DNA of 64,000 nucleotides from Shigella phage vB_SboM_Phaginator. Position numbers and translations under genes: made by a program. Below are positions 47,676-50,064 of the stretch, piece by piece; position 1 is the stretch's first letter; each line of letters opens with the position of its first letter. Location of the stretch: the sequence record OL615012. The stretch is one strand, 5' to 3'. The notes under the pieces are model-generated. The model saw nothing but the letters and a program-made list of their open reading frames with translations. It did not search any database and had not been told where the DNA came from.

Positions 47676-47748
47676 ATTATTTTCCTCTTTAATCATCAGC
47701 AGTATTGCCGATAGTTGTATAGTACCATGGAAGGACAAGGATGTAAAC
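47676..47748 (-). promoter_or_regulatory. Early-promoter-like cassette
   Basis: Minus-strand GTTTAC (47743-47748), 18 bp spacer, TACTAT (47719-47724). Confidence 0.45.
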
Positions 47749-47770
47749 CGTTTTGTGAAAAAATTTTTGA

Positions 47771-47798
47771 AATAAAAAAGGGGACCTCTAGGGTCCCC
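47771..47798 (-). terminator. Rho-independent terminator downstream of gene 32
   Basis: GGGGACC-loop-GGUCCCC hairpin followed on minus strand by UUUUUUAUUU. Confidence 0.7.
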
Positions 47799-47820
47799 AA
47801 TTAATTAGTAATATAATCTA

Positions 47821-48729
47821 TTAAAGGTCATTCAAAAGGTCATCTAGGTCCGTGTCATCAGCACTAGATGAACTGCCAGAGCTTGAGCTCATAAAATCAT
47901 CTTCAGTTTTTGTATTGAAGTCATCAACATTGAATGCATCCAAATCATCAGCAACTTTATCAGCTTTCTTAGCGGCAGTTGCTGCGGCACCACCCATCAC
48001 AGCAGTTCCCATGACTTGACCGAATTTAGTGCTCAGTTCTTCAAACGATTTGAATTTATCTTTAGAAGTCATTTCAGAAAGGTCAACCATTTGTTCGAAC
48101 AGTTCTTTCTGGAAAGATTCATCGTCAATGTTTGGAATCGCAGATTGATTCAGGAATTTAGATTCATCGTAGTTACTAAATCCAGAAACTTGTTTAACTT
48201 TCAGTACAAAGTTAGCACCTTCCCACGGACAAGTTACATCAACCGGAGTTTCACCCATTTCAACATCAACTGCAATCATTGCGTTGATTTTATCCCAGAT
48301 TTTCTTACCGAAACGATATTTAAATACTTTACCTTCATTTTCTGGAGCAGCTGGGTCTTTTACAACAAGAATGTTAGCCCAGTAAGAAGTTTTACGTTTA
48401 ACAAGACTGTACTCTTTATTGTCAGTGTTGTACAAATCATTTTTACTGATGTACTGACATACTGGGCAAGAATCGTAATCACCGTGGGTAGATGAGCAAT
48501 TTTCGATATACCATTTACCATTTTTCTTGAAACCATGATTTACAAGAATTGCGAATGGTGCTTGTTCATCATTTTTAGACGGAAGAAAACGAATTACTGC
48601 TTGACCGTTACCCGCATTGTCGAGTTTCAGTTTCCACTCGCCTTTGTCTTCAGAAGAAAAACCACCTTTATTTCCAGCCAGTTTAGCCATTTGTGCAGCA
48701 AGTTCAGCAGTAGATTTACGTTTAAACAT
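47821..48729 (-). CDS. 32: Single-stranded DNA-binding protein gp32
   Basis: 302-aa ORF starting [17 protein letters not shown], acidic Ser/Asp-rich C-terminus, zinc-binding Cys/His cluster; T4 gp32. Confidence 0.98.
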
Positions 48730-48812
48730 TTTTATTTCCTTTTTAATTTAATTAACAGTTGGTGCTATGACGATGTATGACCTCATAGCTGGTCAGTGAG
48801 ATAATTATAATC
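48730..48812 (-). promoter_or_regulatory. Gene 32 mRNA leader (probable autoregulatory translational operator)
   Basis: AT-rich unstructured tract (AAUUAAAUUAAAAAGGAAAUAAAA) before AUG; by analogy with T4 gene 32 operator. Confidence 0.5.
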
Positions 48813-48820
48813 TATTTATA
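48813..48820 (-). promoter_or_regulatory. Late promoter (TATAAATA, minus strand) upstream of gene 32
   Basis: Minus-strand TATAAATA ~85 bp upstream of gene 32 ATG. Confidence 0.5.
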
Positions 48821-48828
48821 ATAAGCAA

Positions 48829-49482
48829 TTAATACTTACAAGATTTCACAGTTTCAATAAAAACTTTTTTAGCTTTCTGTGAATCAATATTTAAAATTTT
48901 TCTATAAGCCTTTAACTTTATAGAATAATTATTCCAGACTAAATTATCAGTCTGTTCATCATGTTTATCAATTATATTTAAAAACGAATCAAGCAAGATA
49001 AACGTCTCAAACGAAATTATATTCGATTGCAGAAGTTTAAAAATATAACTTGATTGAACCTTTGGATTATATTCAAAGATTTCTTTAAAAGCAGAAACTT
49101 CAACTTTTTTACTAAAATAATAAATGTTGCGAATATCTTCTTCAAACTTAAATTTAATTTGCTTTAAGCGTCCGATATATTCACGATAAAACACAAGTGC
49201 ATCAGCGTCAGAGATGTCGCCAATCCAAGCATCTTGGTTAGCAACCAAATTACTTATAAAAATTAAAGCAAGTTCCTTTAATTTATATTTTTCTGATAAC
49301 TTCTGGAAAAAATACTTATCCCTTCGCTTTTGATAAGCGGCATCAGACACCCGCATGCACCAATTATACTTAATAACATCATACTTTCCATTCATATGCT
49401 GTTTTATCATTAAGTATAATTTATAAACTGATTTACCATCAATGTATCTTTCACCACCAGCAGGCATGCGGAGTTTAATCAT
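48829..49482 (-). CDS. 59: Helicase loader gp59
   Basis: 217-aa ORF, T4 gp59 length and position. Confidence 0.95.
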   Translation of the reverse strand: MIKLRMPAGGERYIDGKSVYKLYLMIKQHMNGKYDVIKYNWCMRVSDAAYQKRRDKYFFQKLSEKYKLKELALIFISNLVANQDAWIGDISDADALVFYREYIGRLKQIKFKFEEDIRNIYYFSKKVEVSAFKEIFEYNPKVQSSYIFKLLQSNIISFETFILLDSFLNIIDKHDEQTDNLVWNNYSIKLKAYRKILNIDSQKAKKVFIETVKSCKY

Positions 49483-49817
49483 AGTAGAAAATCTAATGTA
49501 TTAGTTTTTTCACAACGAACAACAGAAGGACGCAAAAGATTTTCGTCAATAGCTTCTGACTGAATTTTTTCAATTATACCTGAAGGAATAAATTTAGCAA
49601 ATTGAGTTTCAGGAATAGAATTTTCTTCCAAGAATGCTGTCGTAGCTTCAAGATAACTCATTCCAAACTCTTCTACCATTTTTTCAATAATAAATCCATT
49701 TTCTTGACGATCAAGAAGCTTTGCTATTTCATCCTTTTCTTTCTTAATTGAAAGTTCTTTTTCTGAAAGACCGGTCTCATCGACCGGACGAATATCATTT
49801 AGAGAAAACTGTGTCAT
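49479..49817 (-). CDS. 33: Late transcription co-activator gp33
   Basis: Start at MTQFSLNDIRPVDETG gives 112 aa as in T4 gp33. Confidence 0.92.
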   Translation of the reverse strand: MTQFSLNDIRPVDETGLSEKELSIKKEKDEIAKLLDRQENGFIIEKMVEEFGMSYLEATTAFLEENSIPETQFAKFIPSGIIEKIQSEAIDENLLRPSVVRCEKTNTLDFLL

Positions 49818-50064
49818 AAAGTTCAACTACCTCTTCAGTTTCAGCTTCAAACACATCACGGTTATCTTTATGATACAAAGCTAATAGACGATTAAACATC
49901 TTACCATCAACGCCAAGTTCATCTTTAGCACGAATTCGAATATCTTTAATCAGTTCATTATAACCGGAAATTTTCAGTTTATGATCAGATGCTTCTTTAA
50001 TAAATTTAGCCAAGTCTTCGCCATGGATAGCTTCATCAAATTCAACCATTTCTTTTTTAGCCAT
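49795..50064 (-). CDS. dsbA: dsDNA-binding protein DsbA
   Basis: 89-aa ORF, T4 DsbA length and position, overlaps gene 33 start. Confidence 0.88.
   Translation of the reverse strand: MAKKEMVEFDEAIHGEDLAKFIKEASDHKLKISGYNELIKDIRIRAKDELGVDGKMFNRLLALYHKDNRDVFEAETEEVVELYDTVFSK

Follow-up and report, generated by a model that had tools for sequence, protein, structure and literature searches.

Does the short stretch of DNA between genes 59 and 32 of Shigella phage vB_SboM_Phaginator contain an operator through which the gene 32 product controls its own translation, and, if so, is this operator new or one already known? We analysed a window of 64,000 nucleotides from sequence record OL615012, in which gene 59 ends with a TAA stop codon at 48831–48829 and gene 32 starts with an ATG at 48729–48727, both on the minus strand. 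From these ORF ends, the spacer between the two genes is exactly 48730–48828 and constitutes a complete gene 59–gene 32 intergenic leader of 99 nt on the minus strand, of the T2/T6 type and without a segG insert. An original prediction had assigned to this leader a late-promoter motif and an unstructured tract next to the AUG, and had pointed to T4, in which gp32 autoregulates translation by binding such a tract after nucleating at an upstream pseudoknot.

The genes flanking the leader identify the locus. The gene 59 product (helicase loader) has a length of 217 aa and matches the Pfam models T4_Gp59_N and T4_Gp59_C, and gene 32 (47821–48729, minus strand) encodes gp32, the presumed trans-acting repressor, which has a length of 302 aa, matches the Pfam model gp32 (PF08804, E = 3e-67) and is identical to T4 gp32 at 298 of 302 positions (99%). 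The N-terminus MFKRKST is the same as in T4, so that the cooperativity motif K3–T7 (KRKST), which is needed for lattice spreading by gp32 (PMC535899), is intact, as in members of the T-even gene 32 operator group. The differences from T4 gp32 are N18A, a one-residue Gly insertion after G22 that lies directly past the N-terminal cooperativity segment, T77N (window numbering) and N233S (window 48661–48678 and 48498–48500, minus strand). Pfam matches among the neighbours include gp33 (late-transcription co-activator), DsbA and RNase H upstream and Frd.3 downstream, and the gene order around gene 32 is the T-even order. Downstream of gene 32 we also observed a strong intrinsic terminator on the minus strand (47780–47798; GGGGACCCTAGAGGTCCCC followed by a T-run), which has a 7-bp stem with six G-C pairs and is located 23 nt past the gene 32 stop codon; beyond it lies a sigma-70-like site for frd.3 (TTTACA-17-TACTAT, TG).

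All 99 nt of the spacer are identical to the corresponding sequences of T2 (PV958097.1), T6 (AP018814.1), RB18 and RB33, and 298 phage records are at least 99% identical to it. We therefore have little doubt that what lies between the two genes is the T-even gene 32 control region in its T2/T6 allele, including middle and late promoters, pseudoknot and operator lattice. The locus is thus already known: rather than being related to the T2/T6 gene 32 operator, it is that operator, and it shows every defining feature that can be read from sequence. In what follows, the identity of the elements, their coordinates, the fold, the covariation, the structure-free tract and the motif matches were determined in this analysis, and gp32 binding, repression and RNase E cleavage are taken from the literature on T4, T2 and RB69.

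A constrained search for H-type pseudoknots identified one on the minus strand at 48764–48795 (−66 to −35 relative to the AUG), upstream of the tract. Stem 1 pairs the 5' arm UGACC (48795–48791) with the 3' arm GGUCA (48782–48778), and stem 2 pairs the 5' arm GCUAUGA (48789–48783) with the 3' arm UCAUAGC (48770–48764). Loop 1 is a single A (48790) and loop 2 is UACAUCG (48777–48771). The resulting pseudoknot of 5 + 7 bp with loops of 1 nt and 7 nt has the size known for the gene 32 operator (about 28–36 nt), and its 5' edge at −66 agrees with the known distance of ~67 nt from the AUG. The T2 RNA of which the structure was solved by NMR (PDB 2TPK) is 36 nt long, with uacaucg as loop L2 and a joint helix of 12 bp (PMC5684407 Table 1). 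Window positions 48797–48762 match this RNA, gcugaccagcuaugaggucauacaucgucauagcac, at 35 of 36 nt; the lone mismatch is the engineered 5' G of the construct, at which the natural base is A 48797, and 48796–48762 thus correspond to NMR nucleotides 2–36.

The summed stem energy of this pseudoknot is −13.1 kcal/mol compared with −0.6 ± 1.2 in shuffled sequences, among which the best reached −8.6 and none of 1,000 reached the observed value. We had also counted base pairs; however, this test was not significant, as 52 of 1,000 shuffles reach 12 bp. Base-pair count was therefore dropped as a chance test in favor of energy scoring, because in a sequence this rich in A/T about 5% of shuffles attain 12 bp, and support for the pseudoknot from the individual sequence accordingly rests on energy together with covariation. 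Nested folding with ViennaRNA, which cannot predict pseudoknots, returned the stem 2 hairpin only (−11.4 kcal/mol, z = −3.0).

To analyze covariation, we collected gp32 relatives from IMG/VR and from GenBank phages (about 2,400 phage records have a gp32 match), which yielded eight distinct leaders of the classical type, namely those of T2, T4, RB69/Mosigvirus, X20/Winklervirus, L016, L027, L019 and L022. Plain MAFFT alignments of these leaders were rejected since gaps fell within the stem 1 3' arm and the segG flank of T4, which is not homologous, was misaligned; they were replaced with a register-fixed alignment in which loop 2 is padded with N (alignment A2). Across the eight lineages in A2, 95.8% of the cells of the two-stem structure are paired and both sides have changed at 7 of the 12 pairs. 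For example, one stem 1 position occurs as A-U, G-C, U-A and G-U, and one stem 2 position as C-G, A-U, G-U and G-C. The covariation score was not reached in any of 500 column shuffles, and pairing fell to 25–46% when the 3' partners were shifted by 1–3 columns. The register of stem 2 in A2 was chosen by requiring pairing, and its 100% pairing is therefore partly by construction; the arms of stem 1 were placed by position only and are still 90% paired, which makes stem 1 the unbiased test of the two. The original prediction took an absence of conserved pseudoknot-forming segments in alignment with T4 as the observation that would speak against it. What we find is that the stem 2 arms GCUAUGA/UCAUAGC are identical in T4, as are the one-base loop 1 and the ACCAACUGUUAAUUAAAUUAAAAAGGAAAUAAAAAUG tail save for one extra UUAAA in T4, and that the change in stem 1 from UGCC/GGUA in T4 to UGACC/GGUCA here is compensated. 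The pseudoknot proposed upstream of the tract is thus present at 48795–48764, as judged by the match to 2TPK, the covariation and the energy shuffles.

The tract next to the AUG is likewise as proposed. It consists of AAUUAAAUUAAAAAGGAAAUAAAA at 48753–48730, and the 37 nt at 48763–48727 have a minimum free energy of 0 kcal/mol; all of 200 shuffles of this segment fold at least as well as the native sequence. We delimit a putative unstructured A/U-rich operator lattice at 48730–48763 on the minus strand, an assignment of function that derives from earlier work (PMC535899, PMC3014915). This A+U-rich segment contains the repeats UUAA, UUAAA and UUAAAAA (48755–48740) followed by the Shine-Dalgarno sequence AAGGA (48741–48737) and hence includes the ribosome-binding site, as in the gene 32 operator. 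In T4, T2 and RB69, gp32 nucleates on the pseudoknot and spreads cooperatively over the UUAA(A)-rich ribosome-binding segment, and self-repression sets in once single-stranded DNA is saturated (PMC535899, PMC3014915). Given that the downstream ORF encodes gp32 and that the leader is that of T2/T6, the reading of this leader as a site of gene 32 autoregulation is supported, and gp32 is expected to bind it and repress its translation by analogy with T4 and RB69, in which repression was demonstrated (PMC535899).

Applied to Phaginator, the 5'-proximal H-type pseudoknot at 48795–48764 would serve as the high-affinity nucleation site for gp32 and would be bound when free gp32 exceeds the available single-stranded DNA. 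From there gp32 would polymerise cooperatively in the 5' to 3' direction along the structure-free lattice ACCAACUGUUAAUUAAAUUAAAAAGGAAAUAAAA until it covers the Shine-Dalgarno sequence and the AUG, and binding of the 30S subunit would be blocked.

At the DNA level, the leader contains two overlapping predicted promoters. The late-promoter motif is present as an exact 8/8 match to TATAAATA at 48813–48820 on the minus strand (−91 to −84 from the AUG). Using the definition of the T4-type late promoter box and its position at −13 to −6 (PMC2988020), the start is predicted near −78/−77. The box is followed by the A/T-rich sequence GATTATAATTAT, as is characteristic of T4 late promoters, which have no −35 element, and a component of phage-encoded late-transcription machinery is found in the window in the form of the gp33 co-activator (49479–49826; Pfam Trans_coact, E = 6e-27). 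In the window, TATAAATA occurs 18 times compared with 8.7 ± 2.9 times in dinucleotide shuffles, none of 100 of which reaches 18, and at the frequency seen in the window any one 99-nt stretch would contain a copy on a chosen strand with a probability of ~1%. Six other distinct leaders, all without segG (RB69, X20, L019, L022 and L016/L027 types), also have the motif 4–22 nt ahead of the pseudoknot, and in the RB69-, X20- and L022-type leaders it lies 4–8 nt from the pseudoknot edge.

The second promoter, which the original prediction had missed, is of the MotA-dependent middle type. It comprises the MotA box AATTGCTTAT at 48821–48830 (minus strand), which matches (a/t)(a/t)(a/t)TGCTTtA at 8 of 10 positions and overlaps the gene 59 stop codon, and the sigma-70 −10 hexamer TATAAT at 48804–48809 (minus strand), which fits the −12TAtaaT−7 rule at 6 of 6 positions (PMC2988021). 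The two are separated by 11 bp, within the 12 ± 1 bp of MotA/AsiA promoters (PMC2988021). This middle promoter overlaps the late box within the same 27 bp, and transcription from it is predicted to begin at A 48797 (−68), which precedes stem 1 by 2 nt and coincides with the position of the first base of the NMR construct. The same bases in Yersinia phage fPS-90, which correspond to window 48826–48804, are annotated as "predicted middle promoter". A further MotA-type middle promoter is located inside gene 59 at 48971–48998 on the minus strand (TCTTGCTTGA), with its box at 48998–48989, a 12-bp spacing, a −10 hexamer TATAAT at 48976–48971 and a predicted start at about 48964. Its position is exactly that of PsegG in T4, for which the start is listed at 148678 (PMC2988021 Table 1), with 135 nt of gene 59 still to follow, so that a counterpart of PsegG is present even in a locus without segG. 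Transcription of gene 32 would thus start locally from a MotA/AsiA-dependent middle promoter (start at −68) and from a late promoter dependent on gp55, gp33 and gp45 (start near −78); the exact transcript starts in Phaginator are predictions.

Two RNase E-type RAUUW motifs, which the original prediction also did not include, are present at 48802–48812 on the minus strand, GAUUA at 48812–48808 and AAUUA at 48806–48802 (−77 to −73). In T4, RNase E cuts all gene 32 transcripts at −71, a site shared by five T4-related phages (PMC3014915). The T4 site lies within GCGAAUUAUGCC, 4 nt 5' of the pseudoknot, and the hexamer that holds it, AAUUAU, is found here at 48806–48801, so that the leader has a RAUUW motif just 5' of the pseudoknot as well. 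Cleavage in Phaginator, and its position, are predicted from this likeness. At the AAUUA motifs, host RNase E would shorten longer upstream transcripts, including those from the middle promoter inside gene 59, and trimming and local starts together would cause every mRNA species to begin a few bases before the pseudoknot. Overall, the late box, the tract and the idea of a pseudoknot stood up in the original prediction, to which the coordinates of the pseudoknot, the middle promoter and the RNase E-type motifs have to be added.

Part of this evidence lends itself to other explanations, one of which concerns what the pseudoknot is for. Because every predicted 5' end falls within ~2–12 nt of it, the pseudoknot could also shield the 5' end of the mRNA, which plausibly fits the unusual stability of gene 32 mRNA. 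In its strongest form, this explanation holds that the pseudoknot is mainly a 5'-terminal structure protecting the mRNA from 5'-end-dependent decay by RNase E and that repression is achieved chiefly via the unstructured lattice. The predicted starts at −68 and −78 and the AAUUA motifs at −77 to −73 are in line with this, as is the close spacing of late box and pseudoknot in the RB69-, X20- and L022-type leaders, and of all T4 mRNAs that of gene 32 is the most stable, with processing by RNase E yielding stable species (PMC3014915, PMC2988022). However, footprinting and mutations identified the pseudoknot as the nucleation site and showed that the pseudoknot and the UUAAA elements are both essential for repression (cited in PMC535899), and the Karamvirus-type relatives that have no pseudoknot indicate that it is not universally required for a working gene 32 mRNA. 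We consider protection as the main role to be a minority possibility, of perhaps one in four; it may well be an additional role rather than an exclusive one. A further explanation, in which the A/U-rich tract serves solely as a strong ribosome-binding region, that is, an S1-binding enhancer, and has no operator function here, has very little to recommend it. A/U-rich unstructured leaders generally favour 30S binding, and thus a fold of zero energy is also expected of a strong ribosome-binding site. Yet the tract is that of T2/T6 and is only one UUAAA unit short of the experimentally footprinted T4 operator, and the gp32 that would act on it is 99% identical to the T4 repressor.

The late box raises a similar question, since all of it falls within the 11 bp that separate the MotA box from the −10 hexamer. 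TATAAATA might therefore be no working late promoter but merely the A/T-rich spacer of the MotA-dependent promoter, in which case late expression of gene 32 would depend on stable earlier transcripts or on read-through. About nine copies of TATAAATA are expected by chance in 64 kb, and not every site listed as a late promoter is proven to be active (PMC2988020). Against this, the box matches perfectly at 8/8 positions and is followed by A/T-rich DNA, it recurs 4–22 nt upstream of the pseudoknot in six other leaders in which the flanks are otherwise different, and gene 32 of T4 is stated to have both middle and late promoters, relocated inside segG (PMC2988022). On balance we regard a nonfunctional late box as improbable, though less so than a tract without operator function, and retain the reading of the leader as an autogenous operator preceded by overlapping middle and late promoters.

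Between the pseudoknot and the UUAAA repeats, the leader contains an AACUGU box (48755–48760, −31 to −26, minus strand). In the first set of distinct gene 32 leaders, ACUGU is present in 26 of 30, mostly at −22 to −34 and with the last copy at −22 to −44, and the density of AACTGT is 23 per kb in the leaders compared with 0.72 per kb in the rest of the same loci. The box was found in loci L003–L027, L082–L090 and L099; it is more widely conserved than the pseudoknot and includes lineages that lack one. In Karamvirus-type phages, three copies (four in L020) are located inside the last codons of gene 59 and occur in three codon phases (caA CTG Ttc, aaA ACT GTc and AAC TGT), which argues that selection acts on the nucleotides rather than the protein. 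AACUGU is not a general upstream signal of T-even genes, as a copy at most 60 nt from the start was seen for 2 of the window's 78 crude genes compared with 2.3 expected, and it is not universal in T4-like phages: Biquartavirus, Ac42, Schizotequatrovirus, Ceceduovirus, Menderavirus, Krischvirus and Slopekvirus lack it or have it displaced. Among the marine leaders, 28 of the 31 do not have it where it usually lies. No description of it was found in PMC535899 or by a full-text search of the accessible literature. We tentatively suggest, while considering it rather doubtful, that in Tevenvirinae and some neighbouring genera the gene 32 operator includes AACUGU as a separate element that has not been described before. 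If this were true, AACUGU could be a sequence-specific determinant for the choice of mRNA by gp32 or by another factor, and the pseudoknot would be a later add-on.

The collected leaders further illustrate how variable the region upstream of gene 32 is. Karamvirus-like phages and others (L006–L012, L014, L017, L020, L021 and L084) have no 59–32 spacer, and no H-type pseudoknot of at least 12 bp was detected in them; gene 59 ends 5–15 nt before the gene 32 Shine-Dalgarno sequence in this set, and any operator there must therefore overlap the gene 59 coding sequence. Acinetobacter phage KARL-1 (L090, −79 to −28) and the IMG/VR loci L025 and L026 (−90 to −43) have pseudoknots that differ in topology. 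These have a stem 1 of 8 bp (CUCUUAUA/UAUAAGAG or ACAAUGAA/UUCAUUGU) and longer loops, and their stem 2 (GGUGUAC/GUACAUC and GGUGUAG/CUACAUC) is recognisably homologous to that of the T-even phages; in KARL-1, ACCAACUGUUAA comes directly after it, as in T-even phages. The marine T4-like contigs (L029–L081) and the Vibrio schizo-T4 phage V07 (L096) have neither the pseudoknot nor AACUGU; instead, their Shine-Dalgarno sequence is preceded by three to six repeats of the AUACA type, and many of the marine leaders share a ACACCAUCCCC..UUGGUGU hairpin further upstream. In Stenotrophomonas phage IME-SM1 (L098), two copies of AAAGCACA precede the Shine-Dalgarno sequence. Lineage-specific short repeats may thus be a general feature of gene 32 leaders.

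We also searched 47700–49000 with the Rfam models (E ≤ 10) and obtained no match above the gathering threshold; Rfam apparently does not include a gene 32 pseudoknot family. The best match was to DUF2815 RNA (window 48727–48783, minus strand; 19.1 bits against a threshold of 41.2, E = 1.5), a similarity centred on UUAAAAAGGAAAUAA..AUG. This RNA is named for DUF2815, a family of T7 gp2.5-like phage single-stranded DNA-binding proteins (PMC5686142). The parallel is curious; however, the similarity is probably due to chance and at E = 1.5 is no evidence of relatedness.

Control of gene 32 is a classic case in which a DNA-replication protein titrates its own synthesis against the amount of single-stranded DNA. 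Because the T2/T6 allele has been found again, nothing new follows for this control, and the locus is useful as a positive control in which a reading from sequence recovers a textbook regulatory region with every part placed to the base. A review describes gp32 autocontrol in diverse T4-related phages as under-studied, and the comparative by-products, that is, the AACUGU box, the Acinetobacter phage pseudoknots of different topology and the lineage-specific short repeats, are perhaps worth a small follow-up.

Among known systems, one parallel is E. coli rpsO (S15), in which an mRNA pseudoknot operator is likewise bound by its own product and has a nearby RNase E site (a parallel drawn in PMC3014915). 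Unlike gp32, S15 traps the 30S subunit on the mRNA and does not polymerise cooperatively over the ribosome-binding site, and both the RNA and the protein are unrelated. The RB69 operator (Borjac-Natour et al. 2004), for which autogenous repression was shown experimentally (PMC535899), has the same topology, no segG and a late box adjoining the pseudoknot; it differs in covarying stems (AUACC/GGUAU and GCUACGA/UCGUAGC), a longer unstructured region and different repeats.

The T4 operator (McPheeters 1988; Shamoo 1993) shares with the present one the gene, the stem 2 arms, the 1-nt loop 1, the ACCAACUGUUAA...AAGGAAAUAAAAAUG tail and the spacing between the AUG and the 5' edge of the pseudoknot (−67 in T4, −66 here). 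Its pseudoknot has a stem 1 of 4 bp that includes a G-U pair and a shorter loop 2, and its tract has one more UUAAA unit. A further difference is that in T4 the homing-endonuclease gene segG is inserted between genes 59 and 32 and its 3' end overlaps stem 1 of the pseudoknot (noted also in PMC535899), whereas the window has no segG. The boundary of T4/T2 homology is the 5' arm of stem 1 (window 48829–48830 junction compared with T4 segG, L001 2910–3542). The T4 gene 32 promoters, middle and late, are embedded in segG (PMC2988022) at about −145, with the late box moved to −158 to −151, and at −204 (P32); the listed P32 start at 148057 corresponds to −204 and agrees with this location (PMC2988021 Table 1). 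Closest of all is the T2/T6 gene 32 autoregulatory pseudoknot with its leader (PDB 2TPK; Holland et al. 1999), which has the same loop 2 (uacaucg), forms a 12-bp quasi-continuous helix and is identical over the whole spacer, with no detectable difference beyond the engineered 5' G of the NMR construct.
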